64,000 nucleotides of DNA, taken from Limisphaerales bacterium. Lineage in GTDB: Bacteria > Verrucomicrobiota > Verrucomicrobiia > Limisphaerales > AAA164-E04. This document shows positions 9,186-58,786 of the stretch, piece after piece. A model generated the notes under the pieces. That model searched no databases and had not been told where the DNA came from. It saw only the letters and a program-made list of their open reading frames with translations. How positions within the stretch are numbered: the first letter of the stretch is position 1; each line of letters begins with the position of its first letter. The stretch lies in contig OZ242022.1 of NCBI GenBank assembly GCA_965204945.1, positions 3,797,591-3,861,590 of the forward strand. The letters are read 5' to 3'. The position numbers and the translations under genes were made by a program.

Positions 9186-10535
9186 ATGCGCGCAACTTTG
9201 CGAAAACAAAGAAAATCAAAAGAGATTCCTCCGCAAAAATCCCCTCCCTCTTTCTGGCGACGGGCCGCGGGCAAGGCCTTATTGCTCTTAGCCGGAACTG
9301 CCTTCGCCTGTGCGGCATTAGAAAGCTATCTCCGTCTCCAATGGCCCTTCCTAACCAACAAAGAATCGACGCACTTCCATCCCAAAGCCGGTAGCATCAG
9401 AAAGCCCAACGCAGAGGTGCGCTCGACAAATAACCACGGCGAATTCTTTACCATCCAACGCGTCAACCGATTAGGATTCTTAGACCGCGAGCCCATAAGC
9501 CCGGAGCAAAGAGGAACAGGTTGTCATATTACCATTATCGGTGACTCTTTTGTGGAAGCCAGACAAGTGGCCATCGCCGATAAATTCCATGTTCAATTAG
9601 AACGGCTCGCCGCCAAAGAATTGCCCCATCTGAACATGACCGCATCAGCCTTCGGACGCGGCGGCACCGGACAAATTAATCAATTGCCTTATTATGACGA
9701 GTTTGCCCGGCATCTGTGCCCCTGCGTTTTAGTGCTGGTGTTTGTGATCAACGACTTCGGCAACAACCATCCGATTCTCTCCTCATTGCAAAAGTCCGAA
9801 GCGTGGGATCCAGAGCATCCCCCATTCGCTACTGCGGAAAAAAATGCGGACGGCGCCTTTTGTTCGCATTCGCCGGATCGGAATTTCCGCAGGCACATGT
9901 TGCCTCGCCCGCCTATGTCTTGGACTTCAAGATTGAGAAACTATTGGACCCAAAAATTCTACCTTGCCAAGTGGCTGTACTCCAAGCGCTTGTTATGGAA
10001 ATACGCTCGCGCAGAGGCCGCTAAAGAAGGCCGCAAGGAGTCTGAAGATCTCCAAATGACTGCGCGGGTAAAACTTTTGAGCCAGCGCCCCCGTTATGCT
10101 TCTCTGACAAAAGAATGGCCGCCCATATCGAGGATAAATAGTGTGTTTGAAAGAAAAAATTTGCCGCCGATATTTGAGGAAGCCTTAGAATTTACGGCCT
10201 ACGCCTTAGATCAATTCAAAACTCGCGCGGATCAAGATGGTGTTTCGCTGATTATATTGTCCACGCATACTATGGGCGCCCGAGGAAACCTGCCTTTTGA
10301 TCGGATGAACGCATTGGCCAAAGAGCGCGGCATCTCCATCATCGATCAAGCGGATTACATTCGCCGCCAAGGCGGCCGAATTCCGGATGTGCATTGGAAA
10401 CATGACCGACATTGGAACGCAACCGGCCATCAATGGGCGGCGAAAGCCTTGTTAGAATACTTGAAGGAAAACCCGCATATTTGCCGCGCTGAATCCAACA
10501 ACTACAATTCCGCAGACACGACGCAACAAGACTAA
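9186..10535 (+). CDS. membrane-anchored SGNH/GDSL-like hydrolase (paralog 1)
   Basis: The N-terminus is basic and followed by a TM helix. A GDS block (IIGDSFVEAR) and a C-terminal HDRHWN (DxxH-like) are present. It is collinear with the next gene. Confidence 0.6.
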   Translation: MRATLRKQRKSKEIPPQKSPPSFWRRAAGKALLLLAGTAFACAALESYLRLQWPFLTNKESTHFHPKAGSIRKPNAEVRSTNNHGEFFTIQRVNRLGFLDREPISPEQRGTGCHITIIGDSFVEARQVAIADKFHVQLERLAAKELPHLNMTASAFGRGGTGQINQLPYYDEFARHLCPCVLVLVFVINDFGNNHPILSSLQKSEAWDPEHPPFATAEKNADGAFCSHSPDRNFRRHMLPRPPMSWTSRLRNYWTQKFYLAKWLYSKRLLWKYARAEAAKEGRKESEDLQMTARVKLLSQRPRYASLTKEWPPISRINSVFERKNLPPIFEEALEFTAYALDQFKTRADQDGVSLIILSTHTMGARGNLPFDRMNALAKERGISIIDQADYIRRQGGRIPDVHWKHDRHWNATGHQWAAKALLEYLKENPHICRAESNNYNSADTTQQD

Positions 10536-10564: not shown

Positions 10565-11887
10565 ATGCGCCAAGCCGACAAGAGTAAAGAAATACGCGGA
10601 ATAAAAAAGCCATCCCTCGCGCAACGTCTTCGCAAGATTGCGGGAAGAACTTTGTTGTTTCTAGCTGGAATAGCCTTCGCCTGCGCAGCATTAGAAACCT
10701 ATCTCCGCCTCAAATGGCCATTCCTAAACGGCGAAATCCTCTCGGACTTCCATCCCCAAGCGGGCATGATCCGCAAACCCAACGCAGAAGTGCGCTGGAC
10801 AAAAGAACACAGCGAGTTCTGGACGGTTCAGCGCGCCAACAGCTTAGGCTTCTTAGACCGGGAGCCTCCAAGCCCGGAACAAAGAGGGACAGGTTGCCAT
10901 ATTGCCTTTATCGGCGATTCTTTTGTAGAGGCGAGAGAAGTCTCCCTCTCCGAAAAATTCCACATCCGTTTGGAAGAGATTGCATCCAAAAGCTTGCCAC
11001 ATCTCAAAATCACCACTTCGGCCTTCGGGATTGGCAACACCGGGCAGATTAATCAATTGCCCTATTACAATGAGTTTGCCCGACCTCTGCGCCCCTGCAT
11101 TTTGATTCTTGTATTCGTCCAAAACGACTTTGCCAACAACCATCCAGTCTTGCAGGCATTAGACAGCGGAGGCTGGGATCCCAATCACAATCCGTTTACT
11201 ACCGCGGCAAGAGGCAAAGACGGAAGACTGCAATTGGAGGATCCCGATTCAAAGTTTATGGAGCGCAGATTGCCGCGGCTGCCAATGTCTTGGGCTTCGC
11301 GGGTAAGAATCTACTCGTCTAAAAGATCTTATCTGGCCAAGTGGCTGCATTCCAAGTTGTTATTATGGGAATATACTCATCCGGGGGCGAACGAGGATCC
11401 GGAGTTGAATATGTGGGTAAAGCATTTGAGTAAGCTCCCCGGCTATGATTCGCTGGCCAAGGAATGGCCGCCTTTAACCGAAAAAGGAAAACATGATCAT
11501 CCGTACTCCATATATAGTGTTTTTGGGAAGAAAGATTTGCCGCCGGTTTTTGAGGAAGCCTTGGAATATACGGCCTTCGCCTTAGATCAATTCAAGGCAC
11601 GCGCCGAGCGAGATGACATTCCGCTACTCATCTTGTCCACGCATACTATGGGCACTCGCGGAAACTGGAATTTTGACCGCATGAACGCTTTGGCCAAAGA
11701 GCAAGGCATTCCCGTTATTGACCAGACAGCCTACATCCACCGCCAAGGCGGGCAGATTGAGAATGCGCATTGGAGGCATGACCGACATTGGACTCCGCTT
11801 GGCCATCAATGGGCAGCGGAGGCCTTACTGGAATACTTGAAGGCAAACCAGCATATTTGCCGCGATCAGCACGGCGAACTGGAGTAG
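10565..11887 (+). CDS. membrane-anchored SGNH/GDSL-like hydrolase (paralog 2)
   Basis: It shares blocks with 9186-10535: RGTGCHI, GDSFVEAR, GQINQLPYY, ILSTHTMG, FDRMNALAKE, HDRHW, GHQWAA. Confidence 0.6.
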   Translation: MRQADKSKEIRGIKKPSLAQRLRKIAGRTLLFLAGIAFACAALETYLRLKWPFLNGEILSDFHPQAGMIRKPNAEVRWTKEHSEFWTVQRANSLGFLDREPPSPEQRGTGCHIAFIGDSFVEAREVSLSEKFHIRLEEIASKSLPHLKITTSAFGIGNTGQINQLPYYNEFARPLRPCILILVFVQNDFANNHPVLQALDSGGWDPNHNPFTTAARGKDGRLQLEDPDSKFMERRLPRLPMSWASRVRIYSSKRSYLAKWLHSKLLLWEYTHPGANEDPELNMWVKHLSKLPGYDSLAKEWPPLTEKGKHDHPYSIYSVFGKKDLPPVFEEALEYTAFALDQFKARAERDDIPLLILSTHTMGTRGNWNFDRMNALAKEQGIPVIDQTAYIHRQGGQIENAHWRHDRHWTPLGHQWAAEALLEYLKANQHICRDQHGELE

Positions 11888-22050: not shown

Positions 22051-22806
22051 CTACAAAGTGGCGGCTTGGCGGCGTTTCTTTTGCATTCGCCGGCGATAAA
22101 AGAGGACAAAGCCCAAGGCAAACAAGCCAAACACAAGCGCATATTCCTCCGGTTCTGGAATCAAGGCTGCGGGAGTGCTGGAAACCATTACTCGAAAACC
22201 GCTAGAACTCGGCGTGCCCAAAGTGCCGGCCGCCGCAAAATAAGGGCCGAAGATGTAGTTGTAATAATACTCGCCGGCGGTGTTGACAGCAAAGTTGGTG
22301 ATGGATTGAGACAAAGTGCCTTGCCCCCTCCACGAGACGACGTCGTTGGTGGAATAGCTGAGCGAACTTGCCGCGACTCGAATGCCCACGATGTCCACAC
22401 TTCCGTCTTTTTCCATATGAATGTGACTGATGGTTCTGGTGACGGAAGGCGTGGTAATCTGCGGCAAGCTGGCAGAGTTGGCAGTTAAAGAATAATCGAC
22501 CGCACTGCGATTCCCTGCAAAGAATCTAGTGCCGCCGGAGGTGTAGGGTAATATGCTTCCTACTGTCTCGAAACCTGCGACCGATTCCGTTGTGGAGATG
22601 GTGACGGCGCCGGATCGAGAAGCAGTGGAGCTGCCGGAGAACGTCCAGATGGTTGTGTTGGTGTCGCTTTGAAGGGGATTGATGGTGAGAATCAACTGCG
22701 CTTGGCTCTGCTCCAAAGAAACCAAGAAAGCGCCGACACTACCAACGCCACGAAAAGAGACCTATGCCCGCTTGCCGCTTGCATATTGTAAGGATAGCTT
22801 TTTCAT
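22051..22806 (-). CDS. PEP-CTERM surface protein, paralog 3 (5' end disrupted: leader and mature domain not in one clean frame)
   Basis: The C-terminal sorting signal is IPEPEEYALVFGLFALGFVLFYRRRMQKKRRQAATL. The mature ORF runs 22051-22725. ATG 22806 (MKKLSL, like the paralogs) is in frame but hits TAG after 14 codons. A hydrophobic leader (MQAASGHRSLFVALVVSALS, ATG 22784) lies in another frame. Confidence 0.6.
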
Positions 22807-22873
22807 CACTTCAAACATAAAAATAACCGTTAAATAACTGTTCTCCTGACTTTCCTTAAGGAAAGTTTCTTTA

Positions 22874-26275: not shown

Positions 26276-26410
26276 CTACAAAGTGGCGGCGGCTTGTCGT
26301 TTCCTTTGCCAGTGGCGGCGATGAAAGAGAACAAAACCCAGAGCAAACAAGCCAAACACAACTGCGCATTCTTCCGGCTCAGAGATGATGGTGCCGCCAT
26401 GAAAGCGAAG
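26276..26410 (-). pseudogene. orphan 3' fragment of a PEP-CTERM paralog (sorting-signal tail only)
   Basis: The minus strand translates as ...RFHGGTIISEPEECAVVFGLFALGFVLFHRRHWQRKRQAAATL*, which is collinear with the tails of the three full genes. No matching upstream body or start was found. Confidence 0.55.
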
Positions 26411-26619
26411 CGAACGGCAAACTCAATACAACCAATTCCCATCAGCGCAGCAACTAGCCAGCTATATGTCACCAGCCGTGGATCCCCGCAAATACCCGGC
26501 TGTTGGAGGAGGCAGGAGAATCTACAAATCACAAGATACCGACCACGAAGCTATGGTGGTTTGTCGTTTTTGTCGCTTGCCGCACAAACAGCCAAAAAAT
26601 CCGCATCGCCAAACCAAGG

Positions 26620-27370
26620 CTACAAAGTGGCGGCTTGCCGTTTCTTTTGGAAGTGGCGGCGGAAGAGGACAAAACCCAAAGCAAACAAGCCAAACACAAG
26701 CGCGTATTCCTCCGGCTCAGGGATGATCCCGCTGTGAATGCGCAAAGTCACTCCGTCTCTGGCAAAGTTCGGCTCCAACGTCGCCCAGGCCCCCACATTC
26801 TTGATGAAGAAATCCCCAATCGGCTTCTCCAACAAACCTGAACCCACCCAAGAAGACGCCTGCCCATTAAGAAGCCCATAGTTGAAAGTGCTGCTCACCC
26901 GAATGCCAATATTATCGGCGGCAGTCACATCGTTCATGAACATCCGATTAATAGTTCGGTTGACGGGCGTCGTGCCGATGGTGATGGTGGGCGTGTTGGT
27001 GGCGGTGACGGCAAAGACGATGTTGCTCTTGCCGCCGCCCGGAATTCGGGCATTCACTGAAGCGATGTCTAGGCGGTTGGTGCTGGAAGAGAGGGGAGAG
27101 AGGGTGATGGTTTGGTTGGAAGGCTTGTTGGCGTTGTAAATGTCGCTGGCCGTCTGCCAACCATCGGCGCTAGAAGCGTTGCCGCTGGTGCGTAGCGTGC
27201 CGGGGGTTGCGACGGTGGAGGAGCCGGAGAAGATCCAGATGCTGTTAGTGGGGGTATCCTGGCTGGGATAGACATCAAGGATCAACTGCGCCTGGGCGTT
27301 GTCCCCCCCCCCCCCCCCCCCCCCCGCAAATGCAGGCGACGGCGGCCAATAAAGATAGTTTTCGTTTCAT
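26620..27370 (-). CDS. PEP-CTERM surface protein, paralog 1, with poly-G tract in the signal-peptide region (frameshifted as sequenced)
   Basis: ATG 27370 encodes MKRKLSLLAAVACIC, followed by G(23). The mature frame continues DNAQAQLILDVYPSQD... to IPEPEEYALVFGLFALGFVLFRRHFQKKRQAATL*. The track ORF 26620-27285 is the mature part only. The tract must be 3n+1 long to join the frames, and 23 is 3n+2. Confidence 0.75.
27303..27325 (-). repeat. homopolymeric G(23) tract (C23 on plus strand) inside a coding region
   Basis: Counted directly: C at every position from 27303 to 27325. Confidence 0.95.
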
Positions 27371-27401
27371 AGGAATCTAGTTTGTTGTCAAAAATCTCTT
27401 T

Positions 27402-27430
27402 GTTTCTAATCCTTCCTCCGCAACGAGTCA
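27402..27430 (-). promoter_or_regulatory. sigma70-like promoter of PEP-CTERM paralog 1
   Basis: The minus strand reads TTGACT, a 17 nt spacer, then TAGAAA, ~31 nt upstream of ATG 27370, preceded by T-rich tracts. Confidence 0.5.
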
Positions 27431-27540
27431 AGCCCTAAATCCACAAAAAAATGAAAAAAGTTAAGAAAAGTTCTTTGTAAAACGGGAAAAAGCGCAACAA
27501 AAGGGAATTCGGGCTGGGAAAATTCATAGTCTTTCCCCTT

Positions 27541-27756
27541 GCCGTTGCGGAAAAAGAAAGTTTTTGGAGCGGTTGCCGCTTGTTGTGGTCGTGATTTCTT
27601 TCTTCCGCAGCCAAGTAGTGAGTGGGATTCGATTGAAGGATTGGCGAGCAGAAGAGCGAGAACTGGTTGTTTTGGCGCGCAGTTTGTCGGCTTGTGGATT
27701 CTTTGGGTTTGGAGAGTTTTGACAAATCCAAAAGCCATCTGAGACAGATTAGTATT
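27541..27756. repeat. conserved ~220-bp upstream element, copy A (partner 58511-58738)
   Basis: Manual alignment to 58511-58738 shows about six substitutions, one 1-nt indel and one 12-nt tandem duplication. It contains a long imperfect hairpin (27547-27608), with arms GCGGAAAAAGAAAG/CTTTCTTTCTTCCGC enclosing AGCGG-TTG-CCGCT. Confidence 0.85.
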
Positions 27757-27940
27757 GGCTTAGTCATGGATCCTCAGCGGTTTTGCCGATGGAAGAGGAT
27801 TTTGCGGTATTCTATTAAAAGCGACTCTGTAAGGGTGATCTCGTTTTTAGAATGGCAAAGTCTCGTTGACTTGCGCGGGGGCAGGGACTATGCTCGGCTT
27901 TGTGTTGTCTGAAGGTCGCCAGTCAGCGAAGGAAAAGTTT

Positions 27941-44945: not shown

Positions 44946-46175
44946 TTATCGGGCTCCTTTTTCGAAATGTACTACAAGGCGTTTGTACCCGTTATGGATT
45001 CGCACCCATTTCCAATAGCTCCGGGTTCTAGCTCCAGTAATCCCTCCGTTTCCGTCATGGAATTGTACCCACATATTTGTATAAGTGGGTTCGGTTTTAA
45101 ATTTCCGGGAGATGCTGTTGCTAATGTCGGGGCCTTGTGTAATCACTTGGTTTTTTTTTTTTGCAAACCATATAGTTTGTTTTTGAATTTGTGTAGGATT
45201 TGAAGTCAAAGAATTCCTGCCGTGGCCTACAATTCCTAATCTTCCGCTAGACAAGAAATTACGGAACTTCCAGTAAAGTTTGCCTTCGTATGTGTTGGCT
45301 TCAGGGTCTTCGGCATCTGCGTGGCCGAGTGCTGACCATCCATCAGAATCCCATATGCTTTTCATCTCATAGTCGTCGACTTTGCGCTCGAGTGTTCGGA
45401 TGTAAGTTTCAGGTCCAAAGAAGAGGTGATTGCCATAAATTCCTCGCCATATCCTAAGCTCTCTCGCCTTATTTCTTGCGTAAGCGTCTTCTCTGCCGAA
45501 AACAGCTGCATCTTGTTTGTAGTACACTGTGCCATCTGGGTTGCGTCCGAACAATTCCAGCATTGAGTTTTTTACGGTGTATCTTGCAGGTGAGAGAAAA
45601 CGCTCAGCTTCCGCAGTCCGCATAGCTGTTCCGTCGATCCGAGTTCCCACTGGGGAGGTATCCCATTGATGTCCTTGACTAGCGGTTTTTCTTCCAGTCG
45701 TCGTCCAGTTTCTTGACCAACTTTGACTAGCAGGGTACCATGTTTTTCGCTTACGGATTTCCGTGGTGGAATTTCCTGTCCACCAAGCCGCGTTGACTTC
45801 GGCTGTGCCTTCTGCGTCGTCGTCAAGTGTTATGCCTCCATGGTGTTCCAGCAATTTCCTTTTAGTCTCGCTCAATGTTTCATTAATGCCCCAACGGACA
45901 GCGGTCAGAACAACGAAGTAGGTAGCGGAAAGTATCAATTGGAGAGGAGTCGCCTTGGCTTCGTTTTGCGTCACTTTGGTTGGAATCAGCAAAATGCCGA
46001 TGACCAACAGGAAAGTGAGTCCAATCAAGCCAATGCGCTTGCGTGTCCAGCGCGATTCCTTCGCCGTTGCCGGCGATTCCGTTATTTCCGATGCAATTTG
46101 CATGGCTTCTTTGGAGACATTTTTCCCCGCGCTGTTGGCGTGGTCAAGATTAATTTCGTTATTTAATGTGCGCAT
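44946..46175 (-). CDS. hypothetical membrane-anchored, Trp-rich protein
   Basis: A single long ORF with TM IGLIGLTFLLVIGILLI and a second hydrophobic segment. It contains an in-frame A(12) run (45151-45162). No family was recognised. Confidence 0.55.
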   Translation of the reverse strand: MRTLNNEINLDHANSAGKNVSKEAMQIASEITESPATAKESRWTRKRIGLIGLTFLLVIGILLIPTKVTQNEAKATPLQLILSATYFVVLTAVRWGINETLSETKRKLLEHHGGITLDDDAEGTAEVNAAWWTGNSTTEIRKRKTWYPASQSWSRNWTTTGRKTASQGHQWDTSPVGTRIDGTAMRTAEAERFLSPARYTVKNSMLELFGRNPDGTVYYKQDAAVFGREDAYARNKARELRIWRGIYGNHLFFGPETYIRTLERKVDDYEMKSIWDSDGWSALGHADAEDPEANTYEGKLYWKFRNFLSSGRLGIVGHGRNSLTSNPTQIQKQTIWFAKKKNQVITQGPDISNSISRKFKTEPTYTNMWVQFHDGNGGITGARTRSYWKWVRIHNGYKRLVVHFEKGAR

Positions 46176-46614
46176 AAAACGGTCTTTCTTTGCTTAGTTA
46201 CAGTAATGTTTATTCGATAATTTCAAGCCGATGAACAAATAGATAGAGCAAAAAGCGCAAGTTCCCGCCCGTTCGCCAAAGCCAACGGGAAAGAGAATAT
46301 TCGACTCTCCCAGAGCAAAAATCATATTTAAACTGTGATATTCAGCAGGGAGACTCGACAAACGAATCGCCCCATCTATCTATTCAAAACCGAGAAAATC
46401 AAAAATCCAGCTGGAGCGCAAGCTTTTTTTTCAAAAAATCTCAACTTTTTTTGAATTTTTTTCGCAGGCTGGCGAATGCAGGCAAAATTCTGGGTTTTGT
46501 TTGGGTTTTGGCGCGGTTTGTCGGCTGGCGGATTCTGTGGTTTTGGGGATTTTGGGGAGGTTCAAAAAGCGGTCTGAGGCAGCTTAGTAACGGCTTCGTC
46601 TCGGTTTTGTTGAG

Positions 46615-57388: not shown

Positions 57389-58166
57389 CTACAAAGTGGC
57401 GGCTTGTTGGCGTTGTTTCTTTTGCATCTTTTGCCGGTGGCGATGAAAGAAAACAAAACCTAGCGCAAAGAGGCCGAAGACAAGCGCGTATTCTTCAGGT
57501 TCGGGGATGACTTGGCTGTTGATGGTGACCTGTATGCCACTAAGCGACGTAAAAAGAGATCCGCTAGTGTAAGTTCCCGCAAAGAAGTCCCCAATGGGTT
57601 TGCCGATTATGCCGGCGCCCGTCCAAGCCGAAGATTCGTTCTGGGAATAAGACAAACTGCTCCCAGAAACACGAATCCCTAAGTCATCTGCACTGTTGTT
57701 ATCATCATCCATAAAAAGATGGGAAATGGTTCGGTTGCCGCTGCCGATGGTAATGGTCGGCGTATTGGTGGCGCTGGCGGCAAAGGTGATGTTGGTTCGG
57801 CCGCCGCCCGGAATTCTGGATCTCACCGAGGCGATGTCGTCGGTATTGGAGCTGGAGAACAGGGGAGACAGAGAGACGTTGAGGTTGCTGGGCGAGTTCG
57901 CGATGAACATCTGTCCGCTATTCGCGGAAGCGGAGTTTATCCAATCCCAAGAGTCTTGGAGAAGGAAAGTGCCGCCGCCGCTTGCGGTTCGGATGGCACT
58001 ATTACCCCGAGCGGTAGAAGAGCCGCTAAAAATCCAGAGGGTTTCGCTGGTGGGGTTATCTTGGCTGGGATAGACGTCAATCACCAACTGCGCTTGGGCG
58101 TTGTCCCCCCCCCCCCCCCCCGCAGATGCAGAAGATGGCGGCCAATAAAGATAGTTTTCGTTTCAT
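57389..58166 (-). CDS. PEP-CTERM surface protein, paralog 2, with poly-G tract in the signal-peptide region (frameshifted as sequenced)
   Basis: ATG 58166 encodes MKRKLSLLAAIFCIC, followed by G(17). The mature frame continues DNAQAQLVIDVYPSQDN... to IPEPEEYALVFGLFALGFVFFHRHRQKMQKKQRQQAATL*. The tract must be 3n+1 long to join the frames, and 17 is 3n+2. Confidence 0.75.
58105..58121 (-). repeat. homopolymeric G(17) tract (C17 on plus strand) inside a coding region
   Basis: Counted directly: C at every position from 58105 to 58121. Confidence 0.95.
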
Positions 58167-58510: not shown

Positions 58511-58738
58511 GCTGTTGCGGAAAAAAGAAAGTTTTTGGAGCGGTTGACGCTTGTTGTGGCCGTGATTTCTTTCTTCCGCAGCCAAGTAGTGAGCGGGATT
58601 CGATTGAAGTATCGATTGAAGGATTGGCGAGCAGAAGAGCGAGAACTGGTTGTTTTGGCGCGCAGTTTGTCGGCTTGTGGATTCTTTGGGTTTGGAGAGT
58701 TTTGACAAATCCAAAAGCCATCTGAGGCGGATTAGTAT
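58511..58738. repeat. conserved ~220-bp upstream element, copy B (partner 27541-27756)
   Basis: See copy A. A partial extra copy of the element's first ~35 nt lies at about 58323-58355. Confidence 0.85.
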
Positions 58739-58786
58739 CAGATAAGTAACGGTTCTGCCGATGGGAAAGGAAGGTTGCGGCGGCGT

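Follow-up and report, generated by a model that had tools for sequence, protein, structure and literature searches.

A candidate phase-variation switch in a repeat-gated family of PEP-CTERM-type proteins from Limisphaerales

A run of 23 consecutive G residues in the signal-peptide region of a gene for a ~250-aa PEP-CTERM-type protein is, judged from sequence comparison, very probably the hypermutable repeat of a candidate contingency (phase-variation) locus. The slipped-strand reading first proposed from the DNA alone is backed by comparative evidence, namely a G13 ON allele, length polymorphism at related loci and in-frame forms of the same leader. Limisphaerales is an order of Verrucomicrobiota within the PVC group, and there is also a reasonable, though lesser, likelihood that its free-living members possess, across the genome, at least 40-70 genes for PEP-CTERM surface proteins that are each gated independently by a repeat. 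Several repeat classes would share one 5' position, recombination would reshuffle leaders and mature domains, and the resulting combinations of surface variants would probably serve against phage or grazers. No larger repeat-driven phase-variable family would then be known outside host-adapted pathogens, and no earlier one for exosortase cargo.

The G tract and its frame logic

The window, that is, the whole 64-kb stretch of DNA analysed, contains the gene with the following parts.

27371..27500, minus strand: family-conserved upstream region, TTTTCTTAACTTTTTT...TTTTTTGTGGATTTAGGGCTTGAC..., presumed promoter and 5'UTR, kept upstream of every leader type in three genomes
27326..27370, minus strand: start codon and leader n- and h-regions, MKRKLSLLAAVACIC, the first 30 nt identical in the second window copy
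27303..27325, minus strand: poly-G tract G23, which sets the frame and would encode a poly-Gly spacer in the signal-peptide c-region if ON
27286..27303, minus strand: junction D-N-A-Q-A|Q, a signal-peptidase-I-like AQA|Q site common to all family leader types, with predicted cleavage
26725..27285, minus strand: mature domain, a predicted beta-sandwich (AF2 model) for which a solved structural relative was not found
26620..26724, minus strand: PEP-CTERM-type tail IPEPEEYALVFGLFALGFVLFRRHFQKKRQAATL and stop codon (TIGR02595 13.6 bits; AF2 helix 201-225)

A run-length census of the 64-kb window identified C23 on the plus strand at 27303-27325, equivalent to G23 on the coding (minus) strand, as its longest homopolymer. 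This agrees with the sequence-only reading, which had placed a G(23) tract between the start codon and signal peptide and the mature domain. That reading had also drawn attention to so long a homopolymer standing exactly at this junction in DNA of balanced base composition; the window is 51% G+C and its G/C runs are otherwise at most 8 nt, with the exception of C17 (58105-58121). Since no other run exceeds 8 nt, chance is excluded as the origin of the two tracts, both of which are well above the length of ~8 nt at which a G/C run is taken to be hypermutable.

The coding strand from 27370 to 27286 reads ATG AAA CGA AAA CTA TCT TTA TTG GCC GCC GTC GCC TGC ATT TGC, 23 G, AC AAC GCC CAG GCG CAG. 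The frame opened by the ATG at 27370 runs through MKRKLSLLAAVACIC and GGG codons to a TGA at 27277-27275, yielding MKRKLSLLAAVACICGGGGGGGGQRPGAVDP followed by the stop; the leader frame thus terminates with 23 G, as had been claimed. The neighbouring frame, GGGGGGG-DNAQAQLILDVYPSQ..., is open through the PEP motif, transmembrane helix and basic tail to the stop at 26620. Re-derivation of both frames reproduced the rule that the two halves join only at a tract length of 3n+1 (22, 25 and so on), and an in-frame G13 allele from another metagenome (L084) obeys it. The description of the gene as OFF as sequenced stands insofar as the tract is 3n+2 in the assembly; the call itself is uncertain, since the source is a MAG and every sequencing platform is prone to error in homopolymers of 17-23 nt. 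The G23 and G17 lengths in the window may be off by at least one base, or G23 may represent the commonest allele in a mixed population.

In the proposed switch, slipped-strand mispairing at replication would reversibly add or remove G residues. At 3n+1, MKRKLSLLAAVACIC, a poly-Gly spacer, DNAQA|Q and the mature domain would be joined, allowing export and presumably handover to an exosortase, while at other lengths translation would stop 31 codons after the ATG and the mature domain would be left without a signal peptide. The Gly run precedes the predicted cleavage site, so that in-frame changes in length would leave the mature protein unchanged. With dozens of paralogs per genome, each apparently gated at the 5' end by its own repeat, one population could show many combinations of surface variants.

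Approximately 120 nt upstream of the start codon are conserved among the family copies of the window. The conserved box within this region was not flagged by a sigma-70 consensus scan, and a sigma-54 -24/-12 motif sought there by eye was rejected, its spacing fitting the second window copy and not the first. A second conserved non-coding element lies 200-400 nt upstream of family genes (27551-27772, 58522-58755 and 46505-46600); it shows 92-96% identity between the two window copies, lies upstream of many family copies in the other two genomes as well, and has no match in Rfam.

Signal peptide, fold and PEP-CTERM tail

The C-terminus of the first window protein, IPEPEEYALVFGLFALGFVLFRRHFQKKRQ, contains a PEP motif, a transmembrane helix and a basic cluster. 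Its score against TIGR02595 is 13.6 bits, just under the curated cut-off of 16, so that the assignment as a PEP-CTERM surface protein made from the sequence holds for the architecture of the tail and falls short by the model's own threshold. Among 34 family members, 12 match TIGR02595 at E<=1 and 24 match the FxDxF PEP-CTERM model (best E 1.8e-4); matches to PEP-CTERM models other than TIGR02595 are weak. No exosortase gene was detected among the 20 large window ORFs scanned. AlphaFold2, supplied with a 40-sequence alignment, predicts a beta-sandwich followed by a C-terminal helix (201-225) with a pLDDT of 82.4 and a pTM of 0.75. A Foldseek comparison of the modelled mature domain with the PDB returned nothing below an E of 0.05, and a Pfam search with this domain gave no match.

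A putative signal peptide can be recognized by eye in the ON frame only, with MKRK as n-region and LSLLAAVACIC as h-region, followed by AQA|Q. The signal-peptidase-like nature of this site, already suggested, gains from the family alignment, where the junction residues A27 and Q28 are invariant across leader types, a pattern that fits cleavage by signal peptidase I. An alternative reading of the leader as that of a lipoprotein, based on the Cys in VAC|IC, was set aside in favour of the conserved AQA|Q; many paralogs have V or F before the Cys, and there is therefore no consistent lipobox.

A large, lineage-restricted family

A protein search whose query was the first window copy restored to frame matched 222 proteins, and a profile search recovered only 325 clusters among 1.84 billion cluster representatives, indicating that the family is small and lineage-restricted. 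The window ORF is identical to database protein P0122, encoded on a contig of 4,313,451 bp. A genome scan found at least 135 relatives; the best 80 of these all derive from the closed Limisphaerales MAGs OZ241891.1 and OZ251460.1, and their DNA was fetched as 80 related loci totalling 298 kb.

Among the N-termini of database members, each of the three frames of a variable G tract is represented. In-frame forms, of which there are ~35, follow the pattern MK.KLSLLAAVxCxC-G(2-9)-[DY]xAQAQ; they include P0012, P0014 and P0025, which carry the leader of the first window gene in frame. Out-of-frame forms are annotated as ...YETKTIFIGRRRLHLRGGGG, MRGGGG or ..PAFAGGGG, and truncated gene calls begin at M[IL].DVY. 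Orthologs lacking an MKRKLSLL-type leader, or translation starting downstream of the tract, would have spoken against the proposed switch. The abundance of in-frame leader forms in the databases indicates that the leader is real and that initiation downstream of the tract is not the normal case.

The window itself contains two further family genes and a remnant, which the sequence-only reading of this tract did not mention.

57389..58166, minus strand: second family gene, leader MKRKLSLLAAIFCIC, G17, DNAQAQLVIDVYPSQ..., PEP-CTERM tail, out of frame
58105..58121, minus strand: poly-G tract G17 of the second gene, 3n+2 like G23
22051..22810, minus strand: third family gene, of the MFEVMKK / MQAASG leader type with a two-copy 7-nt motif GCAAGCG, disrupted
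26288..26413, minus strand: C-terminal family remnant ISEPEECAVVFGLFALGFVLFHRRHWQRKRQAAATL, an orphan PEP-CTERM tail directly 3' of the first gene

The same 30 nt open the leader in the first and second genes, giving two occurrences in the window. In the third paralog the reading frame is broken by a TAG in frame and by the loss of 1 nt, both outside any repeat; with intact relatives known (P0035, P0045), it is either a pseudogene or the product of an assembly indel.

Repeat classes at the 5' end

The repeats of the 80 fetched loci fall into several classes. Poly-G of 9-27 nt follows the leader h-region, and in one subfamily poly-C of 10-32 nt, encoding poly-Pro, lies in the leader n-region. 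In L018, L045, L051 and L038 the poly-C is preceded by two ATGs that overlap and lie in different frames (ATGAATCATGAAAAT). Both are used among in-frame copies (MNHENPPPP... and MKIPPPP...), meaning that two thirds of the tract-length classes can be ON. Heptanucleotide repeats, comprising (TCGGGCA) in up to 14 copies, (GAACAGC) in 20 copies and (GAACTGC) in up to 13 copies, stand directly after the start codon, as does an 8-nt repeat (GAACAGCG) in 17 copies. Finally, in L032 (G16), L039 (G14) and L040 (G9), poly-G is located upstream of the ATG, right after a conserved, -35-like TTGAC box (~1331-1346); from its position this arrangement looks like a promoter-spacer (transcriptional) repeat switch, with the box as a putative promoter element.

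Long G/C runs are strictly confined. All 47 runs of at least 9 nt in the 298 kb of the 80 loci fall inside a 371-bp 5' zone, with none in the other 268 kb.

In-frame and out-of-frame copies

Under a rule requiring an upstream ATG to read into the repeat, 19 copies are in frame against 39 out of frame, both window copies belonging to the latter. A share of 33% in frame equals the expectation for random lengths, or for random length errors. The genome of the window departs from this proportion. None of its at least 15 poly-G copies in the databases is in frame (P0001, P0002, P0009, P0011, P0017, P0022, P0027, P0030, P0058, P0067, P0085 and P0121-P0124), for which the probability under a one-third expectation is ~0.002; ~10 poly-G copies are in frame in the related MAG OZ241891. 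The out-of-frame copies fall into two different classes, so that a constant miscall offers no explanation. The all-OFF set is predicted by no simple error model, and a mixed population in which OFF is the modal allele at each locus would explain it.

A uniformly OFF set would also be tolerable if frame mattered less than supposed. RNA-polymerase slippage or ribosomal frameshifting on the G run could restore the frame in some of the messages, making expression largely independent of the DNA frame and the tract a dimmer instead of an on/off switch, possibly acting also through a G-quadruplex; tracts of 17-27 G, much longer than the 8-13 nt usual in known switches, lend this some plausibility. 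We nevertheless regard it as unlikely to replace a switch set by the DNA frame, given that the 7- and 8-nt repeats and the poly-C tracts with start codons in two frames are sensible only if that frame matters, and it could coexist with DNA-level switching.

Length polymorphism and exchange between copies

One syntenic family locus, which follows an ACR_tran efflux gene and a gene of 174 aa, was found in three assemblies.

L001, OZ241891: G18, in frame
L081, ENA ERZ26167651 contig_63: G17, out of frame
L082, ERZ23496207 scaffold_153: G11, in frame

Comparison of tract length in related strains or MAGs, which had been put forward as a check of the switch, thus gave G18, G17 and G11 at a single family locus. 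L001 and L081 are identical over 2417 bp, the single gap being the tract, and this G17/G18 difference may be sequencing noise rather than biology. Within one genome, the duplicates L039 and L040 have no mismatches over ~1.1 kb and differ internally only in the tract, G14 against G9. The aforementioned L084 (ERZ23495697) has the exact 45-nt leader of the window gene, G13 and ACAACGCCCAAGCGCAG, with the same DNAQAQ junction in frame. A second assembly of the window's own locus was not found by exact-protein look-ups with P0001, P0122 and the Fur neighbour, and a scan of metagenome DNA with a degenerate leader pattern retrieved only an unrelated low-GC contig (L083).

These lengths bear on the reading of G23 as an assembly error, under which the true tract would be in frame and stable and the gene constitutively expressed with no switch. 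The source is a closed MAG, and G17 versus G18 at one locus in two assemblies is typical of homopolymer error in size. There is, however, little probability that this accounts for the family, as paralog tracts range from 9 to 27 nt, the syntenic locus has 11, 17 and 18, far beyond +/-1, and the L039/L040 duplicates lie 5 nt apart. Copies with 7-nt or 8-nt repeats are likewise OFF, with 10 of 12 out of frame, and homopolymer sequencing error is no explanation there. A stable gene would moreover have no reason to maintain a 23-nt homopolymer, and the long G/C runs are confined to one site. Assembly error touches the OFF call and not the hypermutability of the tract.

Leaders and bodies also appear to have been exchanged between copies, as suggested by flank matches and by mixed leader types among close mature domains. 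The Fur-side flank of the first window copy has a 96% match to the flank of L008 in OZ241891, whose own leader is (TCGGGCA)8, and its flank on the side of a dynamin-like GTPase has an 87% match to that of L040 in OZ251460. The upstream flank of the second window copy matches L020 (G24, disrupted). More generally, mature domains that are nearest neighbours often bear different leader types. In OZ251460, the flank matching the remnant at 26288-26413 holds L040, a family gene that is intact, pointing to a deletion or to recombination at the first window locus.

Selection on OFF copies

Nearly all 39 OFF copies retain an open mature frame of 217-249 codons and a PEP tail. By the Nei-Gojobori method, median dN/dS is 0.42 among OFF-OFF pairs and 0.39 among both ON-ON and mixed pairs, with dS at ~0.8. 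The intact OFF ORFs and equal dN/dS imply that OFF copies are maintained as genes under purifying selection and that the OFF state is transient on the time scale of divergence. A decaying family, in which OFF copies are dead and their repeats mutational debris, would account for two thirds of the copies being out of frame, for the frameshift and stop outside any repeat in the third window copy, for the tail remnant and for a few truncated loci (L020, L021, L037, L070 and L073), but is highly improbable in view of the full-length frames, the similar dN/dS of OFF and ON copies and a disruption confined to the repeat.

Relation to known systems

Textbook examples of repeat-driven contingency loci come from pathogens adapted to a host (Neisseria, Haemophilus, Campylobacter, Helicobacter and Mycoplasma, among others), and immune evasion accounts for them there. 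In Neisseria pilC and the poly-G genes of Campylobacter jejuni, the frame is set by a run of G near the 5' end of the coding sequence, which in pilC is the part for the signal peptide. The window family shares this design of a 5' mononucleotide G tract whose length decides the frame. In pilC and C. jejuni the usual tract length is 8-13 nt, and the genes concerned are single or few and diverse in function, whereas the tracts of the window family measure 9-27 nt and belong to one large paralogous family. In promoter-spacer switches, including Neisseria porA and opc, Bordetella fim and Haemophilus influenzae hif, the repeat lies in the promoter spacer. The poly-G after the TTGAC box of L032, L039 and L040, a putative promoter, occupies the same position; both window loci differ in that their tracts sit inside the ORF.

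The sequence-only reading named pilC as the known case, and this matches part of the design; the closest analogue is Neisseria opa, not pilC alone. Slipped-strand contingency loci are a well-known class of mechanism, and opa genes carry CTCTT pentamer repeats in the signal-peptide coding region, with 11 independently switching copies in N. gonorrhoeae (PMC11868660). Like the window family, opa is a multigene family of small surface proteins with a conserved framework and variable segments. In both, the repeat lies in the leader-peptide coding region, such that in-frame changes would leave with the leader, and each copy has a separate repeat number and ON/OFF state. Opa proteins are beta-barrels, in contrast to the predicted beta-sandwich and C-terminal PEP/TM anchor of the window family, and the two are not homologous; membership in the Opa family was rejected on the absence of a Pfam match and on the predicted beta-sandwich and C-terminal helix, leaving opa as an analogue only. 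Further differences are that opa has one repeat class and the window family four or five, that the window family has several-fold more copies per genome, and that it occurs in environmental Verrucomicrobiota and not in a pathogen with a human host.

PEP-CTERM/exosortase cargo (Haft 2006; TIGR02595) has the PEP motif, hydrophobic helix and basic cluster in common with the window protein, which differs by its sub-cut-off TIGR02595 score. The literature searched contained no report linking PEP-CTERM cargo or Limisphaerales to repeat switching, in accord with the initial remark that no description of switching was known for PEP-CTERM/exosortase cargo in PVC bacteria. An Akkermansia genome paper lists homopolymers >8 bp in 17 genes and mentions PEP-CTERM proteins separately.

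The mechanism is hence familiar, and what is new is the lineage, the cargo, the copy number, the tract lengths and the presence of several repeat classes at one site. If the proposed switch is real, it would extend the contingency strategy to free-living bacteria, pointing to phage or protist pressure as the driver, and would offer a first regulatory handle on PEP-CTERM/exosortase cargo. It would be directly testable, because long-read metagenomes for such organisms already exist. Two cautions apply to family annotation: gene callers mis-annotate most copies, either truncating them at M[IL].DVY or fusing them to sequence further upstream, and polishing of homopolymers can reverse the ON/OFF state that the copies seem to have.

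Other features of the window

The genes of the window are otherwise those of an ordinary chromosome and include DprA, DNA polymerase III delta', Fur, a T2SSE ATPase, a Wzy_C ligase and a CotH protein. An Rfam scan of the window identified only a tRNA. A T12 run on the plus strand (45151-45162) corresponds to an in-frame A12 (..FAKKKNQ..) in a 409-aa ORF at 44946-46175 on the minus strand that has no Pfam match; this tract may be another slippage-prone site. Two tandem paralogs on the plus strand, at 9186-10535 and 10565-11887, share 75-78% DNA identity, and each has a weak match to an AlgX-like SGNH hydrolase.
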